Source: Candidatus Bathyarchaeota archaeon
GTDB lineage: Archaea > Thermoproteota > Bathyarchaeia > Bathyarchaeales > Bathycorpusculaceae
Direction of reading: 5' to 3'
Assembly (NCBI GenBank): GCA_012515445.1
Contig: JAAYYI010000033.1
Span: forward strand, 10 to 64,009
Length of the DNA: 64,000 nucleotides
How positions within the stretch are numbered: position 1 is the stretch's first letter; each line of letters begins with the position of its first letter. Position numbers and translations under genes: made by a program. The notes beneath the pieces were generated by a model. That model was not told where the DNA came from. It was given only the letters and a program-made list of their open reading frames with translations, and did not search any database. This document shows positions 893-35,356 of this stretch, piece by piece.

Positions 893-1747
893 TTGATGTC
901 AAGCCAAGTAGATAAAGTCCAAGCTTACAGAAAAGAGGAAGAGAGTAAGATAGAGCAGCAATTCCTCAAAGGCAACCGAGACGAAGATTTAGGTGTCTAC
1001 ATCGACGTCTTCTCAGCTAAAAGTAGTGTTGAGGGCCAAAACGGCGGGGTAGTTACGGCTCTTCTGCAGAAGGGACTCCGCGAAGGCCTGTTCGACGTTG
1101 CAATAGTCGCAAGGCGGATGCAGGGCTACACGGCGCAGGCAGTAGTCGCCGATAATGCAGAAGCTGCTCTACAGTTCAAGGGAACAACTTACGTCAAAGT
1201 CAATGTTTCAAAGAAACTCCGAGAACTCCTCGGTCAAGGTAAAAGGCGGATAGCCGTCGTATGCACACCCTGCGAGATTAAAGCTGTACGAAAAATCCAG
1301 CAGACAATCGGCAAAGAAGCCGGAGTCTTAGTAATCGGATTATTCTGTTTTGAAGCTTTCAATCCCGCCAAGCTTAAAGAGGAGCTAGGCAAGCGAGGCA
1401 TCGACTTAGAGAAGGCTGAAAAGACAGAGATCAACAGAGGCAAATTCACAGCAACAGTTAACAGCGAAGCGACTATGTGTAGGGTAAAAGATATTGAGGC
1501 TGCATCCGAGCCGTTTTGTCGGTTCTGCAACGATTTTGTTTCTCGTTTGGCGGATGTCTCTGTCGGCTCCATCGGCAGTAGACAGGGTTACTCGACAGTT
1601 ATTGTGCGCTCCCCCGCTGGAGAACAGCTAGTTAAGGGTAATGACTTCGCCAAAGACACGGTCGATAAGCGGGAGATCGCTAAATTAGTGTGGTTTAAGT
1701 GTGAACGCGCAGAGAAACGCTTTGCTGACTTGAACCCGCAAGCTTAA
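893..1747 (+). CDS. FrhB/FdhB/FpoF-family F420-reactive FeS flavoprotein subunit
   Basis: 284-aa ORF starting at TTG 893 or ATG 896. Motifs GGVVTALL, CTPCEIKAVRK, GLFCFEAF and C-terminal CRFCNDF..ADVSVGS are typical of the F420 hydrogenase/dehydrogenase beta family. Confidence 0.75.
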   Translation: MMSSQVDKVQAYRKEEESKIEQQFLKGNRDEDLGVYIDVFSAKSSVEGQNGGVVTALLQKGLREGLFDVAIVARRMQGYTAQAVVADNAEAALQFKGTTYVKVNVSKKLRELLGQGKRRIAVVCTPCEIKAVRKIQQTIGKEAGVLVIGLFCFEAFNPAKLKEELGKRGIDLEKAEKTEINRGKFTATVNSEATMCRVKDIEAASEPFCRFCNDFVSRLADVSVGSIGSRQGYSTVIVRSPAGEQLVKGNDFAKDTVDKREIAKLVWFKCERAEKRFADLNPQA

Positions 1748-1864
1748 GCCCTGTTTTGACTATTTATTCTGAATGTGAGCGCTGTTTCTTAAGGGTTAGC
1801 GCAATATATGCAAAAGATTTTTTAACTCAAAAGCATTCCCCCTTTAAAGCGAGATGGAAACTCA

Positions 1865-2596
1865 ATGAAAATACTAAACGAGTTTGTACCAACACGTAAA
1901 TTCTTCAAGCTAGCAGAAGAACTCAAAGACCTTGTCGACGGCTGGAACGTAACTGACAGCGCAGCAGGCTATCCAGCACCAAGCGGCGTAGTCGTAAGCT
2001 GTTTACTGAAGAACAAGTACCCAGACAAGTACGTCTGCCCAATCTTCATTCTACATTACAAAGGCCCAGTTGAAGTCGGAGGATTAGCATTAGCATCCGA
2101 CATCGTTGGTTTAGACGGCTTAGCCGTAACCATGGGCGACAAGCCAAGCATCGGCGAACCAATCAAAATGCTTCCTTCATCAGAGGCTGCACGAGACTTC
2201 ATACGAAGCGACAAAGTTAAAATCAAAAACCTAAAACTCGGCTGCTTACTAAGCGCAAGATCAAACGTTGAAGACGCAATCAAACGTGCACAGGAACCAT
2301 GGGACTTCGTTTACTTCATGAGACTAAACGACGACTCATTCGAGCAACTAAAAGCAGTATCCGCTGCATGCAAGAAAATCAACAAGCCACTCTTCGCGTA
2401 CTTCCTCGTCGGAACTGAAAAGAACAAGGAAATCGTGAAAGTAATCGGTTGGCCAGTAACAGCCACAATGGACACTGTTGAAGAGAAAGCAGCAAGACTC
2501 GTCGGCCTAGTTGACGGCATCATCGCTACATGCGCTGGTGACGCTGAAGGCGACAAACTGATGCTGCAGAAACTCCAAAAGTTCCGCACAGCATAA
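1865..2596 (+). CDS. Short MetF-like (methylenetetrahydrofolate reductase family) TIM-barrel protein
   Basis: 243-aa ORF. NEFVPTRK resembles the MetF EFFPPRT motif, NVTDSAAG resembles SVTYGAGG, and GLAVTMGDKP resembles ALRGDPP. It is shorter than canonical MetF (about 290 aa). The assignment is from recalled motifs only. Confidence 0.5.
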   Translation: MKILNEFVPTRKFFKLAEELKDLVDGWNVTDSAAGYPAPSGVVVSCLLKNKYPDKYVCPIFILHYKGPVEVGGLALASDIVGLDGLAVTMGDKPSIGEPIKMLPSSEAARDFIRSDKVKIKNLKLGCLLSARSNVEDAIKRAQEPWDFVYFMRLNDDSFEQLKAVSAACKKINKPLFAYFLVGTEKNKEIVKVIGWPVTATMDTVEEKAARLVGLVDGIIATCAGDAEGDKLMLQKLQKFRTA

Positions 2597-2657: not shown

Positions 2658-3359
2658 TTAAATTATTATTTCATCTTTTGGTTGCGGCTTCCGTTTTACC
2701 ACTGGCAAGACAAATTCAAGAATCACCAGTAAAAGTATAAGCACAAATACCAGTGGCAGACCCCAAGAGACATACCTGAAAAAGAGCGTAACCCAACCCA
2801 AAAGCGGAATCCTTAGAATTACTTTTCCTTCAACTAAATCAGCCGAGACACCCTGCCCGTTTGCAGTGTAGATGCTATTGGAATCATATTCACTTAACGA
2901 AGGAACTGCTGGCCACTTTTCGCCGTTACCATCTCCCTTTGTCTGGAAATGCAAAGTGCCATTTTCTGTGTAGCTAGCCACTATACGATGAACTATGGGA
3001 GTGCCGGTTTGGTCATTGGGTTTCTTGTATACTATTATGTCGCTGTTTGGGTAGTCAGTGTTTAATGTTTTTGGGTCTACGTCTTGGATGATTATTACGT
3101 CGCCCACGTTTAGTGTTCTGTTGAATGGATGAGTTAATGTCCAGAGGAAATCCTCAAGAGTATACGGCCGGTAATCAGGCCCTGGCACGGTGTTGTTGGG
3201 TATGCACATGCTGCTGCTTTCAACCACCCTAACAGGTGTTGAGACACCGAAAATCAGTGGCAGACTAAAGAAGAAACTGAGAACCAGAACTACAACAAGC
3301 ACCATAGAAAGTATGGTTCTAGCGTTCTTGTTGTGCCGTACCCTGTCAAGCACGTTCAA
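2658..3359 (-). CDS. Archaeal-type signal peptidase I (S26B-like)
   Basis: 233-aa ORF with an N-terminal TM helix, the SSSMCIP Ser box, GDVIIIQ, the IVHRIV His box and a C-terminal TM helix. Confidence 0.7.
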   Translation of the reverse strand: MNVLDRVRHNKNARTILSMVLVVVLVLSFFFSLPLIFGVSTPVRVVESSSMCIPNNTVPGPDYRPYTLEDFLWTLTHPFNRTLNVGDVIIIQDVDPKTLNTDYPNSDIIVYKKPNDQTGTPIVHRIVASYTENGTLHFQTKGDGNGEKWPAVPSLSEYDSNSIYTANGQGVSADLVEGKVILRIPLLGWVTLFFRYVSWGLPLVFVLILLLVILEFVLPVVKRKPQPKDEIII

Positions 3360-3475: not shown

Positions 3476-4234
3476 ACGAACACAATCCAAGTATTACCCG
3501 TCACAGGCTTACCACTAATACATCCCGGCGACCAATTAGGCAAGATGATCGCGGAAGCAGCAGAAAAGCAGGGTACCCCAATACAGCCGCACGACGTCAT
3601 CGTAGCCACCCACGTCGCTGTCTCAAAATCTGAAGGCAACATAGTAAACCTCGACGCCGTCAAGCCGTCCGAGAGAGCTATCGAGATCGCTAAGCAAACA
3701 AACAAAGACCCCGCAATGGTGGAAGTTATCCTGCAGGACACCAAAGAAATCGTCCGCATAGGCCAAAACAGCATCATAACCGAAACCAAAAGCGGCGTCG
3801 TCTGCGCCAACTCTGGGGTAGACCGCTCAAACGTGGCGGGCGACCGAAACGTGGTACCTCTGCCAAAAGACCCTAACGCTTCAGCGGCTAGAATCCGGCG
3901 GGAAATAGTTGAGCAATCCGGCGTTGAGGATGTGGCTGTTATCGTGTCTGATACCCATGGGCGTCCGTTTAGGATGGGGGAAATCAACATAGCAGTCGGC
4001 TACGCTGGCTTCAAACCTATCAGGGACAGGCGTGGAGAGAAAGACCTGTTCGGATATGTGCTGCGCATAAAGATGACTGCGGTTGCAGACGAGTTAGCTT
4101 CAGCGGCTGAGCTTGTAATAGGTCAAGCAAATGAAGGAATCCCCGTGGCTATCGTGCGAGGCTACAACTATACATCAAGCGAAGAACAAACCACACAGCT
4201 TATCCGAGCTAAGGAAAAAGACCTGTTCAGGTAG
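3476..4234 (+). CDS. cofE: Coenzyme F420:L-glutamate ligase CofE (start proposed at ACG 3476; first ATG is 3545)
   Basis: Motifs GVVCANSGVDRSNV, PLPKDPNASA and DTHGRPFR are present. The conserved N-terminus IQVLPVTGLPLIHPGDQL is encoded upstream of the first ATG, in a stretch with no ATG/GTG/TTG. GGAG at 3464-3467 lies 8 nt before ACG 3476. Product confidence is high; the start is uncertain. Confidence 0.85.
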   Translation, partial: TNTIQVLPVTGLPLIHPGDQLGKMIAEAAEKQGTPIQPHDVIVATHVAVSKSEGNIVNLDAVKPSERAIEIAKQTNKDPAMVEVILQDTKEIVRIGQNSIITETKSGVVCANSGVDRSNVAGDRNVVPLPKDPNASAARIRREIVEQSGVEDVAVIVSDTHGRPFRMGEINIAVGYAGFKPIRDRRGEKDLFGYVLRIKMTAVADELASAAELVIGQANEGIPVAIVRGYNYTSSEEQTTQLIRAKEKDLFR

Positions 4235-4276: not shown

Positions 4277-4606
4277 ATGCAAGCACAAACACCCCAAGAA
4301 TTCTTTAGCACAATTTTACCTCAACGGTTCAAACCAGCGAAAGCAGCCGGCATAAACGTCGTCGCTCAAGTAAACATTTCTGGACCCGAAGGGGGCAGTT
4401 GGACAGTTACAATCAAAGATCAAAAGATGACTGTAACCGAAGGCGTGGACCCTAACGCTGAGTTAACGCTAAAAATGAACCCGGCCGATTTTCTGGATAT
4501 GGTAAACGAGAAGTTGAGTGCAGAGAAAGCCTTCTTTACCGGAAAAATCCAGTTTAAAGGCAATATCGCAGTCGCCCTGAAGCTTAAAGACGCTGGCTTT
4601 TTATAA
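4277..4606 (+). CDS. SCP2 (sterol carrier protein 2-like) domain protein
   Basis: 109-aa ORF. The C-terminal pattern ADFLDMVNEKLSAEKAFFTGKIQFKGNIAVALKL is typical of the SCP2 fold. Confidence 0.7.
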   Translation: MQAQTPQEFFSTILPQRFKPAKAAGINVVAQVNISGPEGGSWTVTIKDQKMTVTEGVDPNAELTLKMNPADFLDMVNEKLSAEKAFFTGKIQFKGNIAVALKLKDAGFL

Positions 4607-18492: not shown

Positions 18493-18575
18493 CATATTTT
18501 TCCCCTTAAAAATACCACATTAAATATATGCCAGATTTTGCTAGTCAAAGAGCAGAAATCTTTGAGGTTTATGTT

Positions 18576-19340
18576 ATGAAAACTCTAGTTACCGTCGGTC
18601 GTGGTGGAACAGGAAAATCCAGTTTCTCAGCCCTTATGGCAAAAGCCTTCATAGAAGCCAAACAAGCCCCAATCTTGCTAGTTGACGCTGACCCTGACCA
18701 GAACTTGGCTGAGATGCTTGGAGTAGACCTTAAAGAAGCAGGTAAATCCACAATAGCAGACCTCATCGTAAGCACTTTCATCGAGGGCGGAGGCACTACA
18801 GTCGGCGTTGCTCCGGCCCAGCGCATCGAAGCCCGCATCTGGGAGAAGGGCCTCTACGAAAGCGCCAGCTTCGATTTTATGGCTGTCGGCAACAAATGGA
18901 TTGAAGGCTGCTACTGCATGCCTAACACTGCGCTGAAAAACGCACTGGAATCTCTTACTAAAAACTACAAATACGTCATAGTCGACTCCCCAGCGGGCCT
19001 TGAGAACCTTAACCGCAGAATCACCTCAAAAGTTGACGACGTATTTGACATATTAGACCACTCCAAAAAGTCACAGGATCATGTCAAAAGAGCATACAGA
19101 ATAGCTAAAGAAGTTGACATGAAATTCCAAAACTTTTACATAATTGGTGGATACCGGTTCCCGCCTGAGCTGGGACAAGAGGCAGAAACCAACTTGGGAT
19201 TCAAATATCTCGGTAAAATCGAGGCAGATGACGAGCTAGACCAAGCAGTTCTTGATGGAGAGTCGCTTTTAGACCTTCCAAATGATAATAAAGCGTATCT
19301 TTCGGTTAAAAAAATCCTTGAAACACTGGATTACTTATAG
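18576..19340 (+). CDS. cooC: CODH nickel-insertion accessory ATPase CooC
   Basis: 254 aa from ATG 18576 with the deviant Walker A GRGGTGKSS, the CooC-type CxC motif EGCYCMPN and DSPAGLE. It lies immediately upstream of cdhA. Confidence 0.85.
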   Translation: MKTLVTVGRGGTGKSSFSALMAKAFIEAKQAPILLVDADPDQNLAEMLGVDLKEAGKSTIADLIVSTFIEGGGTTVGVAPAQRIEARIWEKGLYESASFDFMAVGNKWIEGCYCMPNTALKNALESLTKNYKYVIVDSPAGLENLNRRITSKVDDVFDILDHSKKSQDHVKRAYRIAKEVDMKFQNFYIIGGYRFPPELGQEAETNLGFKYLGKIEADDELDQAVLDGESLLDLPNDNKAYLSVKKILETLDYL

Positions 19341-19417
19341 CCCAAATTTTTTTACATAATTTTTTCTTATCTTAACATTTCTATTAGTCTAACCTGACTT
19401 TTGAATAAAGAATCTGG

Positions 19418-19460
19418 AAAGGTTTAAAAAGATTGTAAGCTGGTAGACTGGTAAACCTTT
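19418..19460. promoter_or_regulatory. 9-bp inverted repeat overlapping a TATA-like AAAGGTTTAAAAAG upstream of cdhA
   Basis: AAAGGTTTA (19418-19426) and TAAACCTTT (19452-19460) are separated by 25 nt. The repeat ends 17 nt before the TTG start of cdhA. Confidence 0.35.
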
Positions 19461-19476
19461 ACAGAGGTTATTAGAT

Positions 19477-21825
19477 TTGACTGATAAAAACGTCCATGTA
19501 AAAATAGACGAAATGAAGACCAACGCCGGTCTTGTCAAGAACCTCGAGTTATCTATTGGCAAGGTTATTAATGATAACTATACTGAAGAGCCAATGGGTC
19601 CAACTCCGATGCCCTCCATAACCACCCTGCGAGATTGGGACATGAAGCTTTTAACCAAATACAAGCCCTTCTACATGCCCGACTGCGACTCATGTTGCCT
19701 TTGCACTTTTGGCAAATGTGACTTGACCGCTGGCAAACGCGGCGCATGCGGTTTAGACATAGCAGCCCAATCATCGCGTATCGTTATGATTGCAGCCTCA
19801 ATCGGTTCTGCATGCCATACAGCTCACTCACGCCACTTAGTTAACCACTTAATAGAAAAGTATGGCCGCAGGTACCCCATTGATGTCGGAGGATTAAACG
19901 TTAAAGTTGAAGCACCAGTCAGCCGCCTTGTAACTGGTATAAAACCTGCAACACTCGGCGACTTGGATGATATTCTAACATACACAGAAGAAGAAATTAC
20001 TCAAATTCTAGCAACCGCACACACAGGTCAAGAAGCAAACCCATTAGACTTTGAATCAAAAGCCTTCCACATCGGCATGATTGACCATGTAGGTATGGAA
20101 GTAGGCGACATTGCCCAGATATCCGTTTTCGGCTATCCAAAAGCTGACCCAGAAGCTCCACTAATCAAATTAGGCATCGCCAGCGTTGACAGAACCAAAC
20201 CGGTTGTCATGTGCATCGGCCACAACGTTGTACCATCAGTCGGAATTATCGACTATGCAAAAGAAAACAAAATTGACGAAAGAATCGAAGTAGTCGGCTT
20301 ATGCTGCACAGCCCACGACATGTCAAGATACTACACCCGTGCAAGAATCGTTGGCCCAATCAGCTGGGAAATCAGATTCATACGCGCAGGCCTTGCAGAT
20401 GTCGTAGTACTCGATGAGCAATGCATCAGAACCGATGTAGCTGAAGAAGCAGCGAAAGTTAACACACCAGTCATCGCAGCCTCAGAGAAGAACTGCGTTG
20501 GTTTCAAGAACCGCACAAACGACTCAACCGACTCAATCGTCGAAGACCTCGTCACTGGCAAAGTTCCGGGTGTACTAGTCCTTGACCCAGAAAAAGTCGG
20601 CGAAGTAGCCGTCCGCGTTGCAATGAAGATGGCACCAATCCGCAAACGCAAGAACGTTCTCCCAACAGCAGAAGAAGTTGTTGCAATCGCAAAGACATGC
20701 ACACAATGCAAAGCTTGCCAGCGCAACTGCCCACAGGACTACTTCATCCCAGCAGCTATGAAAGCAGCAGCTGCCGGTGACTTATCAAAACTAGAAGAAA
20801 TATACGAAGTCTGCATTGGATGCTTAAGATGCGAAAGCGCATGCCCACAGAAAATCAAGATCCATAGCCTCATCGTCAAAGCAGGCGAAAAATCAATGCA
20901 ATGCGAAGATAACCTATGCCGCAGCGGCAGAGGTGCAGTTTCAGATGTCGAAATCCGCAGCGTCGGTGGTCCACTTGTTCTTGGAGAAATTCCAGGTATC
21001 GTCGCCATCGTCGGTTGTAGCAATTATCCAAAAGGCGGCAAAGACGTATATGACATAGCCAGAGAATTCGCAAGCAGACGATACATTGTTGCACTATCAG
21101 GATGCAGCGCAATGTCCGCAGGCAGCTACCGCAACAAAGATGGCCAAACCCTCTACGAAGAATTCCCAGGCGGATTCGAAGCAGGAGGAGTCCTCAACGT
21201 CGGCTCATGTGTCTCAAACAGCCACATTGCAGGTGCAGCCATCAAAGTCGCAAATATCTTCGCAAAACGCCCACTAAGAGGCAACTACGAGGAAATCGCA
21301 GACTATGTCCATAATCGTATCGGTGCAGTAGGTTTAGCTTGGGGTGCATACTCACAAAAAGCAGCATCCATCGCAGCAGGTTTCTGGCGCTTAGGTGTAC
21401 CGGTCGTCGTCGGCCCACACGGAAGCAAATACAGACGCATGCTCCTAGGCCGCAAGGAAGACCCAGAAAACTGGAACGTAATAGACGCACGCACAGGCGA
21501 AACAGTCAATGTCGGTCCATCACCAGAACACCTATTCAACGTAGCAGAAACCAAAGAAGAATGCATCGTCCAAATCGCAAAGCTCTGCATGAGACCAAAC
21601 GACACATGGAAGGGACGCTCCGGCAAACTCAGCCACTACATTGACCTACACAAACGCTACATGGGTGTCATGCCAAACGATATTCACCTATACGTCAGAA
21701 CAATGGCAGATGTACCAATCACAATGAAGGACGAAATTACACAAGTCCTGCAAGCAAACAACTGGAAAGAAAGCATAATTCCGGACCCAACATTGCTCCC
21801 AAGAATGGTCCGTAAAATGAAGTGA
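19477..21825 (+). CDS. cdhA: Acetyl-CoA decarbonylase/synthase alpha subunit (CODH catalytic subunit)
   Basis: 782-aa ORF starting at TTG, with GAGGT 8 nt upstream. It has N-terminal CDSCCLCTFGKCDL..GACG cluster motifs, a ferredoxin-like insert (CTQCKACQRNCP, CIGCLRCESACP) and a C-cluster region. Confidence 0.95.
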   Translation: MTDKNVHVKIDEMKTNAGLVKNLELSIGKVINDNYTEEPMGPTPMPSITTLRDWDMKLLTKYKPFYMPDCDSCCLCTFGKCDLTAGKRGACGLDIAAQSSRIVMIAASIGSACHTAHSRHLVNHLIEKYGRRYPIDVGGLNVKVEAPVSRLVTGIKPATLGDLDDILTYTEEEITQILATAHTGQEANPLDFESKAFHIGMIDHVGMEVGDIAQISVFGYPKADPEAPLIKLGIASVDRTKPVVMCIGHNVVPSVGIIDYAKENKIDERIEVVGLCCTAHDMSRYYTRARIVGPISWEIRFIRAGLADVVVLDEQCIRTDVAEEAAKVNTPVIAASEKNCVGFKNRTNDSTDSIVEDLVTGKVPGVLVLDPEKVGEVAVRVAMKMAPIRKRKNVLPTAEEVVAIAKTCTQCKACQRNCPQDYFIPAAMKAAAAGDLSKLEEIYEVCIGCLRCESACPQKIKIHSLIVKAGEKSMQCEDNLCRSGRGAVSDVEIRSVGGPLVLGEIPGIVAIVGCSNYPKGGKDVYDIAREFASRRYIVALSGCSAMSAGSYRNKDGQTLYEEFPGGFEAGGVLNVGSCVSNSHIAGAAIKVANIFAKRPLRGNYEEIADYVHNRIGAVGLAWGAYSQKAASIAAGFWRLGVPVVVGPHGSKYRRMLLGRKEDPENWNVIDARTGETVNVGPSPEHLFNVAETKEECIVQIAKLCMRPNDTWKGRSGKLSHYIDLHKRYMGVMPNDIHLYVRTMADVPITMKDEITQVLQANNWKESIIPDPTLLPRMVRKMK

Positions 21826-21844
21826 GGAACGGAGGAGAAAAACT

Positions 21845-22387
21845 ATGTCCTGTGAACCATGGCAATGTGCAGAAATTGCAGCAACTAAAAAAGCAAACGT
21901 AATCCAAAAACCCGAGATAGCAGTCGCAATGATGAAACGGGCTCAACACCCCATCCTCATTGTCGGCAGTAATGTCACAGAAAGATGGATGGACGGTAAG
22001 CAAGCCATCGAATACATCATCGAATTCGCAAACGCATCAAAGATTCCAGTAGTAGCAACAGCCCATATGGTCGGCGAATTTGTAAAGCGCGGCTATACTC
22101 CAGCAGCATACTGGAATGCAATGGAAATCAGCCAACGCGTCTGTGACCCAACATGGATGGGACTGGACGGCAAAGGCCACCCAGACCTAGTCATCTATGT
22201 TGGTATGCCATACTACATGGAAGCACTGATCCTAAGCGGCCTCAAACACTTCGCACCAGACCTAAAAACAATGACACTTGACAACATGTACCATGTACAC
22301 GCAAGTTGGTCATTCCCTAACGCAAGCCTAGAAGAATGGGCTGCAAACCTCAAAGTTTTAACTTCAAAATATAGTGGAGGACAATAA
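21845..22387 (+). CDS. cdhB: ACDS epsilon subunit
   Basis: 180-aa ORF directly after cdhA, with GGAGGAG upstream. Size and position are canonical for the archaeal cdh operon. Confidence 0.85.
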   Translation: MSCEPWQCAEIAATKKANVIQKPEIAVAMMKRAQHPILIVGSNVTERWMDGKQAIEYIIEFANASKIPVVATAHMVGEFVKRGYTPAAYWNAMEISQRVCDPTWMGLDGKGHPDLVIYVGMPYYMEALILSGLKHFAPDLKTMTLDNMYHVHASWSFPNASLEEWAANLKVLTSKYSGGQ

Positions 22388-22388
22388 A

Positions 22389-23795
22389 ATGTCAATGTTT
22401 AAAGATATACCAGTAGAAGTCGGCGTAATCTACGAAGGAGAACGTATCCGCAGAAACGACATGCAAGTCGAACTCGGCGGACCAACAGTCAAACAAAAGT
22501 TTGAACTGGCAAAAGTAAAACCCATGAACGAAATCGACGATGGCAAAGTCACCATCATCGGTCCAGACTTAAAAGACCTTAAAGAAGGCGGCGCTTACCC
22601 ATTCGGTATCCTAATCGAAGCAGCAGGCGCAAAACTCGATGCAGGCCTCGAAGGTGTCCTAGAAAGACGCATTCACGGCTACTTAAACTACATCGAGGGC
22701 TTCATGCACCTAAACCAGCGCTATGACATCTGGATACGCATCGGCAAGAAATCCTTCCAGAAAGGCCTAAACAGCTTTGAACCAATCGGCAAAGTCGTCT
22801 ACAGACTCTTCAAGAGCGAACTACCAATCGTCGAGAAACTACAGATCACCTTCATCACAGACCCAGCAAAACTAGAAGAAATGACGCCAGCGGCAATGCA
22901 AGCATACGAAGCACGCGACTCAAAAGCCAGAGGCCTAAAAGACTCAGAAGTATCAGAATTCTACGGCTGTGCACTCTGCCAGTCATTCGCACCAAGCCAC
23001 GTCTGTGTCATTACACCACAAAGATACAGCAACTGCGGCGCCATCAGCTGGTTCGACGGTAAAGCCTCCGCAAGCATTGACCCCAAGGGCCCAGTCTTCG
23101 CAATCCCAAGAGGCGAAATGCTAAACGAAGAAAAAGGTGAATTCAGCGGCGTTAACGAAGCAGCAAAGAAACGCAGCATGGGCGAAGTCACCAAAGTCTG
23201 GCTATACACAGCCTTTGACCACCCACACACTTCATGCGGATGCTTCGAAGCAGTAACCTTCTACGTCCCAGAAGTCGACGGCTTAGCAGTCGTACAACGC
23301 AACTTCAAAGGCGCAACCGTAAACGGCTTACCCTTCAGCACAATCGCAGACTCCGCAGCAGGCGGACGCCAAATCGACGGCTTCCACGGAATGTCCATCG
23401 AATACATGCGAAGCAGCAAATTCTTCGCAGCAGACGGCGGATGGAACCGCATCGTTTGGGTACCAAAAGAAGTCAAGGAAAAAGTCAAAGACTTCATCCC
23501 GAAAGACGTTGTTGACAAGATCGCAACCGAAGAGGATGCAAAGAACGTTGACGAACTCAAAGCGTTCCTGAAGGCAAAGAACCATCCAGTCGTTGCTAAA
23601 TGGGAAACAGAAGCACCAGCAGCAGAAACCGCAGCAGTCACCGTTAACGAGGAAGCAGCAGGCACAATGATGCCAGTTGCAACAGCAGGATCACTGCCAA
23701 TAATGGCCGGCGGATTCAAGATCATCCTCAAAGACGCAAAGATCTACGCCAACAAAGTCATCATAACCACCGCAAAAGACGAGAAGAAAGCTTAA
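22389..23795 (+). CDS. cdhC: ACDS beta subunit (acetyl-CoA synthase, A-cluster)
   Basis: ATG 22389 is preceded by GGAGG at 22376-22380. Motifs FYGCALCQSFAPSHVCVITP and HTSCGCFE carry the A-cluster Cys ligands. Confidence 0.95.
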   Translation: MSMFKDIPVEVGVIYEGERIRRNDMQVELGGPTVKQKFELAKVKPMNEIDDGKVTIIGPDLKDLKEGGAYPFGILIEAAGAKLDAGLEGVLERRIHGYLNYIEGFMHLNQRYDIWIRIGKKSFQKGLNSFEPIGKVVYRLFKSELPIVEKLQITFITDPAKLEEMTPAAMQAYEARDSKARGLKDSEVSEFYGCALCQSFAPSHVCVITPQRYSNCGAISWFDGKASASIDPKGPVFAIPRGEMLNEEKGEFSGVNEAAKKRSMGEVTKVWLYTAFDHPHTSCGCFEAVTFYVPEVDGLAVVQRNFKGATVNGLPFSTIADSAAGGRQIDGFHGMSIEYMRSSKFFAADGGWNRIVWVPKEVKEKVKDFIPKDVVDKIATEEDAKNVDELKAFLKAKNHPVVAKWETEAPAAETAAVTVNEEAAGTMMPVATAGSLPIMAGGFKIILKDAKIYANKVIITTAKDEKKA

Positions 23796-23810
23796 GCCCG
23801 GTGACCTAAA

Positions 23811-25025
23811 ACGTCCAACGACAAGAAAAACAATGACGCGCTCAAGCTAAGTGACGATCTCTTAGCAGCGCTCGCAAAGTTCAAGACGATCGAGTTGGAA
23901 GACTTCCAACTTGACGCCAAAGAACTAGAAATACTCTTCGAGCCAGGACAAGCAGTAAACGTATTACCGAAACTCAAACTACCATTAGGCGTCGGCGCAG
24001 GCAAACCAACAAGCTTACTAGCACAGAACTTCCTGCCACCAGTCGAGAAATACCCAAACAAGATCGCCACAGTCAAACTAGGCGCAACACGAAGCGAAGG
24101 CGGCACACGCGGCAGAACAGTCACACTCGGCGGAGAAACCTCTCCAGCCTTCTACTCCTTTGAGAACCCAACACCACACAAACCAATCGTAACCTTAGAC
24201 GTCTTCGACATGGAAGTCCCACTGTCCAAGGCCGTCAAGATGCACGTTAAAGACGTCGTCGGCGACCCAGCAGCATGGGCGAAGCTTGCAGTCGAAAAGT
24301 TCGGCGCAGACATGGTTACAATGCACCTCATCAGCGTAGACCCACTACTCAAAGACGCATCACCGAAAGAAGCATGCAAAACAGTCGAGAAAGTCCTGCA
24401 GGCAGTCGATGTACCACTCGTAATCGGCGGATGCGGTGACCCAGTAAAAGACACAGCCCTCTTTGAAGAGGTATGCGCTCAGTTCCCAGGCGAACGCTTC
24501 CTAATCAGCTCAGTTACACGCGACATGGATGGCGAAAAATGCGCTAAATTCATCAAGAAAGCAGGCAACGCAGTACTTGCCTTCACACCAATGGACCTTA
24601 ACTTTGCACGCGAATTAAACAGGCGTCTCTTTGATCACCTATCACGCGAAGACATCGTTATGGACTTAACAACCGCAGCCCTCGGCTATGGACTTGACTA
24701 CGCATTCACCAACATGGAACGTGCACGCATCGGCGGCTTAATGGGCGACATGGAACTCGCTCAACCAATGAGCAGCGGCACAACCAACGCTTGGGCAGCC
24801 CGTGAAGCATGGCTAAAGATGTCAGCGGACTTTGAACCACGCGAACTCAGAGGTCCACTATGGGAAGTCACCACAGCGCTCACACTGCTTACTGCAGGTG
24901 TCGACGTATTCATGATGATGCACCCAGCAGCCGTTAAAACCCTCAAAGACGTCACTAACTACTTAACTGCAAACAAGAAAGCCGACCCAACCAAGTTCCT
25001 TGAGTGGGTTAAGGTGAAAGCTTAA
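23811..25025 (+). CDS. cdhD: ACDS delta subunit (corrinoid FeS protein small subunit); start proposed at ACG 23811, TTG 23895 alternative
   Basis: TIM-barrel CdhD/AcsD-like sequence (TLGGETSPAFYSFE, VTMHLIS, VPLVIGGCGD). The frame is open from 23805, with GGTGA at 23800-23804. Confidence 0.9.
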   Translation, partial: TSNDKKNNDALKLSDDLLAALAKFKTIELEDFQLDAKELEILFEPGQAVNVLPKLKLPLGVGAGKPTSLLAQNFLPPVEKYPNKIATVKLGATRSEGGTRGRTVTLGGETSPAFYSFENPTPHKPIVTLDVFDMEVPLSKAVKMHVKDVVGDPAAWAKLAVEKFGADMVTMHLISVDPLLKDASPKEACKTVEKVLQAVDVPLVIGGCGDPVKDTALFEEVCAQFPGERFLISSVTRDMDGEKCAKFIKKAGNAVLAFTPMDLNFARELNRRLFDHLSREDIVMDLTTAALGYGLDYAFTNMERARIGGLMGDMELAQPMSSGTTNAWAAREAWLKMSADFEPRELRGPLWEVTTALTLLTAGVDVFMMMHPAAVKTLKDVTNYLTANKKADPTKFLEWVKVKA

Positions 25026-25039
25026 GGAGACATGACAGT

Positions 25040-26464
25040 ATGGCAGACGATAAAAAAGGTGGATTAAAAGAACTCAGCCCAATCACTATCTACAAAAACC
25101 TACCGAAAACCAACTGCAAAGAATGCGGCCAAGACAATTGTATGGCATTCGCCGCGAAACTTGTCAATCGCGAACTTGAACTCGACGCATGTAAACCACT
25201 CCAGAAGCCAGAATACGCAAAGCAGTATGCTGCACTAAAAGAGCTCCTTAAACCAGCAGTTAAAGAAGTAATCATCGGCGTCGGCGAGAAAGCCAAGAAA
25301 ATCGGCGGCAAACTAGTCATGTACCGCCATGAGCTTACATACAAGAACCCAACCGCAATCGCAATCGACGTAACCGACGAGATGCCAGAGAGCGAAGTTG
25401 TCGCCCGCGTACAGAAGACTGAAAACTTCAGCTTCGAATACATCGGCAACACCCTCAAACTCGACATGATCGCCGTCAGATGCACAAGCGACGACGCAGA
25501 CAAATTCAAAGCATGCGTAAAGAAAGTCAGCGAAACCACAAAGCTACCGATGATCCTGTGCGCCATGAACCCACAAGTCATGGAAGCAGGCATAATGGCC
25601 ACACCCAAAGCACGCCCGCTACTCTACGCAGCAAACAGCAGTAACTGGAAAGAAATGGCTGAACTAGCAATCATGTACGATGCACCACTAGTCGCGTCAT
25701 CACCAAACGACCTCGACGGACTCATGTCACTGGCAAAGACTCTCCAGACATACGGCGTTAAAGACATCGTTCTTGACCCAGGAACCTTCCCAAACGAAGG
25801 CTTACAGGACACAATAAACAACTTCACCATGCTACGCCGTGCAGCAACAAAAGCCGGCAACGAACTCGCAGGCTTACCACTGCTCGGTGTACCCATGGCT
25901 GCTTGGGCAAACAAGGGCGAAACAGCAGATGACCTCATCAAATGGCGCGAATCATACATCGCATCCATGCTGGTTGTCCGCTACGCAGACGCACTCATCC
26001 TACACGGAAACGACGGATGGAGCCTACTGCCACTTGCAGTACTACGCCAGAACATCTACACAGACCCACGTAAGCCAGTTGCAGTTGCACCAGGTCTCAA
26101 AGTCTTCGGTACACCAGACGAGAACAGCCCAGTCATGTTCACAAGCAACTTCGCGTTAACCTACTACACAGTCGCTTCAGACATCGAATCCAGCAAGACC
26201 AACGCGTACTTAATCGTTGTTGAATCAGAAGGTTCAGCCATCGACAGTGGTGTCGCAGGACGCAAATTAACCGCAGAACGCATCGCAGACGCAATCAAAA
26301 CATCAGGCGTTGAAGGCAAAGTTAAGCACCGCAAGATCATCAGCCCAGGCAAAGCAAGCAGAATCAGCGGCGAAATCGAAGAACTATCAGGCTGGAAAGT
26401 CCTGGTCGGTCCACGCGACAGCAGCGAAATCCCGAAGTACATCATCGATAAATGGCAACCATAG
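25040..26464 (+). CDS. cdhE: ACDS gamma subunit (corrinoid FeS protein large subunit)
   Basis: 474-aa ORF with the N-terminal 4Fe-4S motif TNCKECGQDNCMAFAAKL..C. AAGGAGA lies upstream. Confidence 0.9.
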   Translation: MADDKKGGLKELSPITIYKNLPKTNCKECGQDNCMAFAAKLVNRELELDACKPLQKPEYAKQYAALKELLKPAVKEVIIGVGEKAKKIGGKLVMYRHELTYKNPTAIAIDVTDEMPESEVVARVQKTENFSFEYIGNTLKLDMIAVRCTSDDADKFKACVKKVSETTKLPMILCAMNPQVMEAGIMATPKARPLLYAANSSNWKEMAELAIMYDAPLVASSPNDLDGLMSLAKTLQTYGVKDIVLDPGTFPNEGLQDTINNFTMLRRAATKAGNELAGLPLLGVPMAAWANKGETADDLIKWRESYIASMLVVRYADALILHGNDGWSLLPLAVLRQNIYTDPRKPVAVAPGLKVFGTPDENSPVMFTSNFALTYYTVASDIESSKTNAYLIVVESEGSAIDSGVAGRKLTAERIADAIKTSGVEGKVKHRKIISPGKASRISGEIEELSGWKVLVGPRDSSEIPKYIIDKWQP

Positions 26465-33536: not shown

Positions 33537-34445
33537 TTAGAAGGTTAAGTCTTCTCTTGTTGGCAAACCGTCACGGGCGCCCATTTTCATTACGCTTCTG
33601 GAAGCCACAAAGTTGCCAAGTCTGCCGCAGTCTTCGAGTGTGCGGTTGTGTACTAAGCCGTATAGGAAGCCTGCGTCGAATGCGTCGCCCGCGCCTGTGG
33701 TGTCGACTACTGGCACCTTGTAGGGTTGCAACGTCATTTTTTCTTCGCCATTCGATACGTAGCATCCCTTGTCACCCATCTTTACCGCGACGATTTCGAC
33801 GCCCATGTCGATTAGCATTTGGGCGCCTTTGGGGATTTCGCGTTCGCCGGTGATGAGCTCAAGCTCCAAAGCGTTTGGCATCATAACAAACGAGTTCTGG
33901 ATAATCGGCTCAATAGCCGAGAGACCTTTCTGTGCATAGAGTGAGCCGGGGTCAAAGCTGACTTTAACACTGTCCGGTAGAAAACTCATAAGCTTCTTCT
34001 GCGCCCGGAACGATTTCTCGCCAACAAACGACGATAAGTGTAGAAACTGGGTGTCGGTGATGTATGACGCTTGTATTTCTCTGAACTCGATTTGGTCGTT
34101 GACGCCGGAGTTAATGTAGAGTGCTCTTGCACCCTTCTTATCTACGAAGCCGAGGCAGACGCCGCTTTTGCCTTTAGGGGAGTGGATGATGCCATCTGTG
34201 TTGACGCCTTCTTTTTGGAAGCAGTCGATTTGCAGTTGACCTTCGTGGTCGTCTGCTATTTTGCCGACGAAACCGACACTTTGTCCCAAGCGTGCCAACC
34301 CTACCATTGTGTTGGCTGCTGAACCGCCGCATGCCTCCGTATAATCATGGATGAAGCTTTCTTCCTCTGCACTCGCTATCTTGTCCACTTTTAGAAGTGT
34401 GTCAACGTTGAGTGCTCCGAATCCTACTACGTCAAATCTTGTCAT
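33537..34445 (-). CDS. PfkB-family sugar/nucleoside kinase (ribokinase-like)
   Basis: 302-aa ORF with an N-terminal GG motif region (GGSAANT) and the C-terminal DTTGAGDAF anion hole motif. Confidence 0.85.
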   Translation of the reverse strand: MTRFDVVGFGALNVDTLLKVDKIASAEEESFIHDYTEACGGSAANTMVGLARLGQSVGFVGKIADDHEGQLQIDCFQKEGVNTDGIIHSPKGKSGVCLGFVDKKGARALYINSGVNDQIEFREIQASYITDTQFLHLSSFVGEKSFRAQKKLMSFLPDSVKVSFDPGSLYAQKGLSAIEPIIQNSFVMMPNALELELITGEREIPKGAQMLIDMGVEIVAVKMGDKGCYVSNGEEKMTLQPYKVPVVDTTGAGDAFDAGFLYGLVHNRTLEDCGRLGNFVASRSVMKMGARDGLPTREDLTF

Positions 34446-35356
34446 TGGAATATCTCGCTGAAGGGTATTTTATATTGGCCTAATTTGCCCTCATAGTTGC
34501 CGGCTGAGATGCGCACTACGCCGGGAATGTCTACAGTTGCTTCGACGCCTGCCTTAGTGGCTAACTTTATGGCGTCAATTGATACTGCGTCGTAGACTAC
34601 TTCGGCGATGTAGCTCACGCCGTCTGGCACTTTGGATTCTTTGCCGAGTTTGGCTTTGAGAGAGGGGCAGTAGCTGTGGTTTGTTGTTGGGCCGATCTCT
34701 GGGAAGTGAGTTTCTGGTTTTGAGCCGGCTGAGCAGATGTCGAAGGTTGTGACGACGCCGTCGATGTGGTGGATTGCGTCAAGCGCTTTTGCACCTGCTT
34801 CTTTTAGTGCCTCTTTGTTGGTGCAGAATAGCCAGATGTTGCCGCCTGCGACTCCTCGGGCGTAGCCTATGTAGCGTTCGATTACGAAGTCGGGGCACAT
34901 TAGCGGTACAACGATGACTTCTCTGCCGTGGCGCTGCTCGACCCATTCATAGCCGTCGCCGCAGTGACCAACCCGGGTCATCATATCCATTTTGCCCTCT
35001 GCGTTTGGCAATGCATCATAGACTGCTGTAAAGGGTTTAACTAGGATGTCTTGGCGTATGCGGTAGCTGAGTTCCTTCTCGAATTTTTCAAGGAGTTTAG
35101 CGAAGTCCTTTTTGGGGTTAAGTTCGCCCCAGAACTGCAAAATTGCGCCAACGCGTCCGTCGGGTGTTTCGTCTTCGCTTAGGTAGCGTTCAACTCCGCC
35201 CTCGGTACGGCCGATGACTACTGAGGGGGTTGCGGTTGAGTCTGAAGTTGCTTTGCAGAGTGTTTCAACGTCGTCTGCTGTTACGATAACTCGGCAGTAT
35301 AAGCCGCTGAATCCTTCGATGAAGGTGTCATAATCGATTTTTGGGTTCTTAACCAT
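34442..35356 (-). CDS. ftr: Formylmethanofuran--tetrahydromethanopterin N-formyltransferase
   Basis: 304-aa ORF, collinear with recalled Ftr sequences (TFIEGFSG..RVIVTA, GVAGGNIW, and C-terminal ISAGNYEGKLGQYKIPFSEIF versus the Methanopyrus ISAGNFGGKLGQYEIHLHDLF). Confidence 0.9.
   Translation of the reverse strand: MVKNPKIDYDTFIEGFSGLYCRVIVTADDVETLCKATSDSTATPSVVIGRTEGGVERYLSEDETPDGRVGAILQFWGELNPKKDFAKLLEKFEKELSYRIRQDILVKPFTAVYDALPNAEGKMDMMTRVGHCGDGYEWVEQRHGREVIVVPLMCPDFVIERYIGYARGVAGGNIWLFCTNKEALKEAGAKALDAIHHIDGVVTTFDICSAGSKPETHFPEIGPTTNHSYCPSLKAKLGKESKVPDGVSYIAEVVYDAVSIDAIKLATKAGVEATVDIPGVVRISAGNYEGKLGQYKIPFSEIFQ

Follow-up and report, generated by a model that had tools for sequence, protein, structure and literature searches.

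The stretch of DNA under study, hereafter called the window, comprises 64,000 nucleotides (nt) of contig JAAYYI010000033.1 (assembly GCA_012515445.1) of a Candidatus Bathyarchaeota archaeon. Close to its start, two genes follow each other on the same strand with a spacer of 117 nt (Table 1). The first encodes an FrhB-family protein of 284 amino acids (aa), and the second a protein of 243 aa with the motifs EFVPTR (residues 6-11), VTDSAAG (29-35), and VTMGDKP (88-94), which had been taken in the original prediction as signs of a relationship to MetF, the methylenetetrahydrofolate reductase (MTHFR). Reading frames, spacer, and all three motifs were found as described there. In that prediction, both proteins were proposed to form an F420-dependent reductase of methylene-C1 units. 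Our analysis favors a reading centered on the second protein: the short MetF-like protein is probably a methylenetetrahydromethanopterin (methylene-H4MPT) reductase that replaces Mer in Mer-less Bathyarchaeia and feeds carbon monoxide dehydrogenase/acetyl-CoA synthase (CODH/ACS). Homology, fold, catalytic residues, Mer absence, complementary distribution, and a shared locus provide strong comparative evidence for this replacement at the level of sequences and predicted structure, while we infer substrate, electron donor, and flavin content of the 243-aa protein.

Taken singly, the 243-aa protein matched neither a Pfam nor an NCBIfam model at E<=1, the Pfam MTHFR and Mer models included, and a single-sequence search against the PDB returned no match either. 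Homology was recognized at the level of the family. An exhaustive search yielded approximately 100 relatives, mostly of 225-260 aa, the nearest of which carry the source names Bathyarchaeia or Nitrososphaerota. In an alignment of 71 family members (alignment A1), 24 match PF02219 independently (best E 2.8e-17), and the profile derived from A1 matches the MTHFR structures of Thermus (1v93, the best match with E 1.9e-5), Neisseria, yeast, and E. coli. By language-model features, the protein is placed at 0.95 with “MTHFR domain” clusters of the Thermoproteota. The AlphaFold2 model is a confident (βα)8 barrel (pLDDT 96.6), for which Foldseek ranks MetF chains first (TM ~0.70). With the VIA structural aligner, Z scores of 18.2 and 18.0 were obtained for the MTHFRs of E. 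coli and Thermus, respectively, 18.6 for Mer (18% identity), 19.0 for a Clostridium 5-methyltetrahydrofolate-binding protein, 18.8 for the F420-dependent FGD, and 17.6 for the flavin-free mycobacterial MTHFR, while unrelated barrels trail at Z ~15-16. The MetF-like character claimed by the original prediction is thus borne out by family profiles, predicted fold, and the catalytic residues described below, although not by a direct Pfam or NCBIfam score; the profile search that it had called for succeeded directly only for the first protein, which matches the N- and C-terminal FrhB_FdhB domains.

The alignment to E. coli MetF (hhalign/MAFFT) is reliable for roughly the first 100-125 residues only. 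Within this part, E6 at the end of strand β1 and D92 in the “GD.P” motif at the end of strand β4 align with E28 and D120 of the E. coli enzyme, and both are kept in at least 90% of the family. According to Gehl et al., MTHFR, the flavin-independent mycobacterial enzyme Mfr, and Mer have two positions in common, namely position A, the proton donor forming a 5-iminium cation, and position D, which is involved in pterin binding (PMC11094777). Via the alignment with E28 and D120, E6 and D92 would occupy these positions A and D. The motifs of strands β2 and β3 are altered in the clade of Bathyarchaeia and Hadarchaeales: β2 reads NVTDSAAG instead of DIPESPxG in the wider family, and β3 reads PIFILHYKG instead of xHxRLxDxN, corresponding to PHLTCID in E. 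coli and to “PH..(C/R).D” in MTHFRs. Judged by profiles and predicted fold, the 243-aa protein belongs to the MTHFR superfamily as a remote member that is shortened and has diverged strongly.

Three classes of characterized reductases are suitable for comparison. With the flavin adenine dinucleotide (FAD)-dependent MTHFR/MetF enzymes (PF02219; E. coli 1zp3/1b5t, Thermus 1v93/3apt), the window protein shares the superfamily, the barrel, and both catalytic positions, but it is approximately 50 residues shorter, escapes the Pfam model, and deviates in β2 and β3. Furthermore, its substrate is presumed to be methylene-H4MPT, since the tetrahydrofolate (H4F) enzymes FTHFS and FolD were not found in the genome. 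With Mer (TIGR03555; 1f07), it has in common the proposed reaction, a comparable barrel, analogous Glu and Asp positions (PMC11094777), and the genomic slot that Mer occupies in sister species (cofC/cofE/SCP2, acetyl-CoA synthetase, cdh). In contrast to Mer, it is not luciferase-like, shows no membership in the sequence family, and is approximately 90 residues shorter, and a direct use of reduced F420 (F420H2) is only proposed here. With Mfr (8bgr, 7wmz; PF19345), the barrel fold is shared without a detectable sequence match, and Mfr differs in being bacterial, H4F-using, and approximately 290 aa long. Mfr shows by precedent that an enzyme resembling MTHFR can do without flavin and take the hydride directly from a nicotinamide.

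The genome that contains the window (2.44 Mb, 127 contigs, 92% complete) encodes Mch, two copies of Ftr, an MtdA/B-type dehydrogenase, and the acetyl-CoA decarbonylase/synthase (ACDS). F420-type Mtd, FTHFS, and FolD were not found in it. From the presence of Ftr, Mch, and ACDS and the failure to find FTHFS and FolD, it follows that the C1 carrier is of the H4MPT type, and the assignment of the organism to those with a Wood-Ljungdahl pathway in the original prediction agrees with these genes. A Mer above the family cut-off was not found genome-wide, the two luciferase-like paralogs scoring 99 and 81 bits compared to the 348.7 bits demanded by TIGR03555; a canonical mer gene, which had already been reported as missing from the window, was thus found neither in the window nor in the remaining genome. 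Likewise, no match to PF02219 was obtained in this genome, and no match to MetV (PF12225) either in this genome or in the neighborhoods examined. The methylene-to-methyl step therefore has no recognized enzyme in the genome of the window.

The distribution of the short MetF-like gene is complementary to that of Mer. Among 121 genomes sampled from the class, in which a full-length short gene was required to score at least 250 bits and a canonical Mer at least 389 bits, the short gene occurs at full length in 15, with one additional copy cut by a contig end, and Mer in 34; no genome contains both. MetF genes of canonical length (frames of ~310 aa), in contrast, do co-occur with Mer in about 12 genomes of this sample. 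Among 251 genomes sampled from the order, the short gene was observed in 102, always as a single copy, and Mer in 56, again without a single genome carrying both, while an overlap of about 23 would be expected. The corresponding uncorrected hypergeometric P value of 1e-15 overstates the support, as related genomes are not independent. The partitions within genera are more telling. The genus of the window (g1) is divided into 34 genomes with the MetF-like gene and 4 with Mer, which accounts for 38 out of 38, and genus g6 into 7 and 4 genomes (11 out of 11). In case of genus g16, 9 genomes with the MetF-like gene and 14 with Mer were observed, and the two never occur together.

Both genes were found to share their genomic surroundings. 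Neighbors within 3.5 kb were recorded for 74 MetF-like and 56 Mer loci. The commonest neighbor of the MetF-like gene is cofE, with 41 out of 74 loci compared to 12 out of 56 in case of Mer. The corresponding counts are 21 and 5 for cooC, 18 and 0 for cdhA, 17 and 10 for an ADP-forming acetyl-CoA synthetase gene, 9 and 8 for F420-type mtd, and 3 and 7 for cofC. In genera g1 and g6, Mer is flanked by cofC and a divergent cofE-SCP2 pair, and the MetF-like gene is situated just upstream of cofE-SCP2(-cofC), or next to cooC-cdh or the acetyl-CoA synthetase gene. In the Mer-bearing genome G038 of the window's genus, the order is acetyl-CoA synthetase, a 94-aa ORF, Mer, CofC, NuoE, NuoF, a fusion of a HoxU-like protein to FrhB, two CooC, and CdhABC; the opposite side is occupied by cofE-SCP2. 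The corresponding interval between cooC-cooC-cdh and the acetyl-CoA synthetase gene with cofE is filled by the MetF-like gene in G114 and G032. On the basis of gene order, the shared slot is the signature of a non-orthologous displacement at one locus. A different arrangement was observed in five genomes of genus g9, where genes for an NfnA-like, an NfnB/GltD-like, the MetF-like, and an F420-type Mtd protein are co-directional with gaps of 70-145 nt (G020 L009:3629-7708; L060, L064, L068, and L070). In g9, the NfnAB-like pair is a possible alternative electron-donor partner.

As another possibility, the 243-aa protein could belong to the TIM-barrel enzymes that act on some other substrate, its likeness to MTHFR reflecting shared ancestry only. 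The missing direct Pfam and NCBIfam matches, the remodeled motifs of β2 and β3, and the close scores of TrpA, RPE, and luciferase-like barrels in fold searches are in agreement with such an enzyme. However, both catalytic positions of pterin reductases are retained, and the exact mutual exclusion with Mer, including the partitions of three genera, would be hard to explain together with the shared locus. We therefore regard a different substrate as very unlikely.

The MetF-like gene is preceded by a BRE/TATA-like element, TGCAAAAGATTTTTTAAC, which is unique within the window and is conserved across families and orders. The same element was found at equal distance in 12 out of 16 loci of a first set and in 4 out of 4 loci of a second set, regardless of whether an frhB-like gene lies upstream. 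It could mark a strong, dedicated promoter, and the MetF-like gene is likely transcribed independently of the FrhB-like gene, as far as this can be read from the DNA. A scan for bacterial-type promoters and terminators was set aside, since it is uninformative for an archaeon. The genes of this region also differ in their degree of conservation, with identities between genomes of 98-99% for the MetF-like protein, 85-91% for CofE, and 65-75% for the FrhB-like protein.

Several observations weigh against the short protein as the substitute for Mer. The 243-aa protein itself fails to match the MTHFR model, the altered motifs of β2 and β3 imply that its cofactor use, or even its reaction, may differ, and the relatedness of the genomes weakens the hypergeometric support. 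Some genomes with the MetF-like gene have no CdhC, e.g., the 98% complete G122. Conversely, approximately 59 CdhC-positive genomes of the order sample contain neither Mer nor the short gene, and in these the step is either dispensable or performed otherwise. The latter genomes belong mainly to family f2, e.g., G050 and G056, in which no match to a canonical MetF was found either. Scores of canonical MetF with the A1 profile are low (48-65 bits). Finally, distant relatives of the family occur in the Sulfolobales, Desulfurococcales, and Fervidicoccaceae, i.e., in taxa that do not run the Wood-Ljungdahl pathway, and hence the basic role of the family may be an anabolic one.

An anabolic methylene-pterin reductase, which supplies methyl groups, e.g., for methionine, and carries no Wood-Ljungdahl flux, would mean that the reduction of CO2 to the methyl level has truly been lost in these organisms. 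Besides the distant relatives and the genomes without CdhC, the reading of Mer-less Bathy-6 as organotrophs by Loh et al. 2021 (PMC7886697) conforms to this, and complementarity alone cannot separate the two roles, because Mer would meet an anabolic need as well. Nevertheless, the gene is repeatedly located next to cooC-cdh, the acetyl-CoA synthetase gene, and mtd, it occupies the slot of Mer in genera in which Mer is catabolic, and its extreme sequence constraint and the strong conservation of the promoter-like element weigh against such a function. Moreover, CdhC is kept in about 87 of the 102 genomes with the MetF-like gene (~85%) and Mch in nearly all of them. A purely anabolic enzyme is therefore considered unlikely, and the replacement of Mer in the pathway to CODH/ACS is preferred.

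With respect to the first gene of the pair, the assignment to the FrhB/FdhB family by the original prediction proved correct. The frame opens at a TTG at position 893, and the likelier start is the ATG at position 896. Both domains expected of the family were matched (FrhB_FdhB_C, 1.7e-36; FrhB_FdhB_N, 9.8e-12), the length is that of a stand-alone FrhB (~280 aa), and among 61 relatives C127, C152, C196, C209, and C212 are invariant, while C124 is present in at least 90%. In contrast to characterized members of the FrhB/FpoF/FdhB family, the protein remains below every equivalog cut-off (129 compared to 331.5 bits for FrhB and 120 compared to 475 bits for FpoF), and neither FrhA/G nor Fpo, Fsr, or GltS is located beside it as a partner; its neighbors are the MetF-like gene and a GNAT gene. 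The Hox-type hydrogenase of the same genome is situated on a different contig. The domains most closely related to the FrhB-like protein either form part of fusions with HoxU-like proteins adjacent to NuoEF or are located behind HoxH. The sole other FrhB paralog of the genome is a protein of 505 aa in which FrhB is fused to two CBS domains (G000:C121; L026:3302-4819, minus strand) and whose context is not related to the C1 pathway.

Considering the FrhB-like gene as the point of reference, its linkage to the MetF-like gene is tight. In four out of four homologs on long contigs (57-75% identical), the MetF-like gene follows 116-120 nt later and is in turn followed by cofE, and in 28 genomes of the order sample, all of which belong to g1 or g6, the 284-aa type immediately precedes the MetF-like gene. 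This type was confined to these two genera. A second FrhB subfamily (Fer4+FrhB, 350-360 aa) adjoins the MetF-like gene in other genera, either upstream, downstream, or divergently. Considering the MetF-like gene, the linkage is loose: for 100 genes that could be evaluated in the order sample, any FrhB gene within 3.5 kb was observed in about 37, leaving ~63% without one. The conservation expected for the pair thus holds for the genus of the window and one sister genus, with constant gene order and a near-constant spacer, but not across the order.

The two-subunit enzyme envisaged in the original prediction is an F420H2:methylene-H4MPT oxidoreductase, in which electrons would pass from F420H2 via the FAD and [4Fe-4S] centers of FrhB to a flavin of the barrel. 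Besides the near-constant spacing in g1 and g6 and the adjacency of the Fer4+FrhB subfamily in three orientations, it agrees with this model that an FrhB gene lies within 500 nt of ~36% of the MetF-like genes compared to 3 out of 56 Mer genes, and that the pair is intact in the genome of the window although the Hox operon resides on another contig. Apart from the loose linkage on the MetF-like side, several points disagree with it. The 284-aa type was not found in G114 and G032, which belong to the window's own family. FrhB-family genes, present in 102 out of 121 genomes of the class sample, also adjoin Mer in G082, G220, G215, G063, and G107, occur near Mer in G003 and G038, and adjoin Mch across much of family f2, and Mer works without FrhB. 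In Mer-bearing genomes, the FrhB domain of the window type forms a fusion with a HoxU-like protein, adjacent to NuoE/NuoF. Furthermore, the MetF-like gene has its own promoter-like element, the two proteins diverge at markedly different rates, and a flavin in the barrel is only presumed for this clade, whose β2 and β3 motifs are altered. Such a heteromeric enzyme is possible mainly for genera g1 and g6 and appears unlikely on the whole; similarly doubtful is that both proteins constitute an undescribed two-component oxidoreductase and with it a third route, next to Mer and MetFV, for completing the reductive acetyl-CoA pathway in Bathyarchaeia at present classed as Mer-less. A complex prediction for the FrhB-like (A2) and MetF-like (A1) proteins gave 0.00 in both runs, which were performed without controls, and was used neither way. 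The FrhB-like gene as a dedicated electron-input module is not supported by this comparison; most likely, it is a lineage-specific neighbor of the MetF-like gene and at most a possible subunit.

Gene arrangements around FrhB vary further. In G086 (L011:63-6729), hoxE-F-U-Y-H are followed by an FrhB-like and then the MetF-like gene on one strand, and in G337 (L066) the MetF-like gene comes immediately after hoxH without an intervening FrhB. In G038 (L020:5987-9853), genes for a NuoE-like protein, a NuoF-like protein, and a 491-aa fusion of the HoxU/NuoG N-terminal FeS region to FrhB are located between Mer/CofC and cooC-cdh. This module looks like an undescribed NADH:F420 oxidoreductase. The FrhB domain of the window type also occurs within open frames of ~720-760 aa, some of them with one in-frame stop (G038:C10:23771-24592; G342:C50; G160:C3; others), and these frames are present in Mer-bearing and MetF-like-bearing genomes alike. 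A repeated pseudogenization of the FrhB-like gene was considered and dropped, since the supposed stops in G161, G298, G304, and G185 are natural gene ends. After inspection of the frames, only G238 (in-frame TGA; L032) and G334 (frameshift; L033) contain disrupted copies. The MetF-like gene of L025 (4975-5701) is frameshifted. All three disruptions may represent assembly errors or decay.

For the preferred reading, in which the short MetF-like protein takes the place of Mer, a mechanism can be modeled on the three characterized reductase classes. E6 of β1 would protonate the substrate, giving rise to the 5-iminium cation, D92 of β4 would hold the pterin, and a hydride would then be delivered. 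As source of the hydride F420H2 is favored, with NAD(P)H as the alternative. The recurrence of cofE, cofC, and FrhB-family genes in the neighborhood, together with the NAD(P)-type Mtd family of the genome, makes F420H2 the most likely reductant, as with an Mtd of the NAD(P) type, methylene reduction would be the obvious consumer of F420. The FrhB-like protein would be an F420-reactive FeS flavoprotein that keeps the F420 pool reduced, e.g., from ferredoxin or from a diaphorase of the Hox/NuoEF type. A precedent for this is soluble FpoF, which functions as a ferredoxin:F420 oxidoreductase. Most plausibly, the FrhB-like protein thus serves the F420 pool, and a role as an obligate subunit is less likely.

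The wider context of the pair conforms to a C1 pathway of this kind (Table 1). All genes on which the original prediction had based its view of the surroundings, i.e., cofE, ftr, and the ACDS operon, were located by Pfam, and ACDS would be the consumer of the methyl-H4MPT formed. The second ftr copy of the genome is located outside the window (G000:C86:26535-26951) and scores higher than the one within it (179 compared to 139 bits). The 233-aa ORF downstream of the MetF-like gene is kept at 62-70% identity and in the same position in L022 and L023, whereas most other loci lack it.

Table 1. Features of the window with their positions, strands, and supporting matches
Feature	Position	Strand	Remarks
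FrhB-family gene	893..1747	+	284 aa; predicted F420-reactive FAD/[4Fe-4S] protein, no hydrogenase subunits adjoining
BRE/TATA-like element TGCAAAAGATTTTTTAAC	1809..1826	+	18 nt; 39-56 nt upstream of the start codon (ATG) of the MetF-like gene; predicted own promoter
MetF-like gene, short MTHFR-superfamily (βα)8 barrel	1865..2596	+	243 aa; candidate methylene-H4MPT reductase
233-aa ORF	2658..3359	-	No Pfam match; between MetF-like gene and cofE
cofE (F420:γ-glutamyl ligase)	3545..4234	+	Pfam F420_ligase 2.8e-67
SCP2-domain gene	4277..4606	+	Pfam SCP2 4.5e-19; recurrent synteny with cofE
CooC-like ATPase gene and ACDS operon (cdhA, cdhB, cdhC, two CdhD-family genes)	18528..26464	+	Pfam Prismane, CO_dh, CdhC/ACS_CODH_B_C, CdhD (twice)
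ftr (formylmethanofuran:H4MPT formyltransferase)	34442..35356	-	PF01913 match at G000:C8:34910-35338(-), 139 bits

A takeover of the Mer step by a member of the MTHFR family within the H4MPT pathway has a counterpart. For ANME-1 and Ca. Syntrophoarchaeum, MetF together with MetV has been put forward as a substitute for Mer (Chadwick et al. 2022; PMC9012536), and relatives of this ANME-1 type occur in the Bathyarchaeia as well. They differ from the short clade in their canonical length (frames of ~310 aa), in being detectable as MTHFR, in being always situated beside MetV, and in co-occurring with Mer in the genomes of the class mentioned above, whereas the short gene lacks MetV in the genome of the window and never occurs together with Mer. 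In a study of Mer-less Bathy-6, no MetF was found, a lone FrhB homolog of unknown role was noted, and the reduction of CO2 as far as the methyl stage was concluded to be lost (Loh et al. 2021; PMC7886697). No description of a short, MetV-less clade that is invisible to Pfam was found in the literature searched.

In anoxic sediments, the Bathyarchaeia belong to the most abundant archaea, and the presence of Mer is a common criterion for ascribing to their lineages the capacity to form acetate from CO2. If the short MetF-like protein indeed performs the reaction of Mer, many of these reconstructions need to be revised, as 102 out of 251 genomes of the order and 34 out of 38 of the window's genus would be concerned. 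It would also represent a second, independent, and cleaner switch from Mer to MetF beside that of ANME-1, with exchanges within genera at one and the same locus. Whether electrons are donated by F420H2 directly, via FrhB, or by NAD(P)H matters for the energy balance of acetogenesis in archaea.

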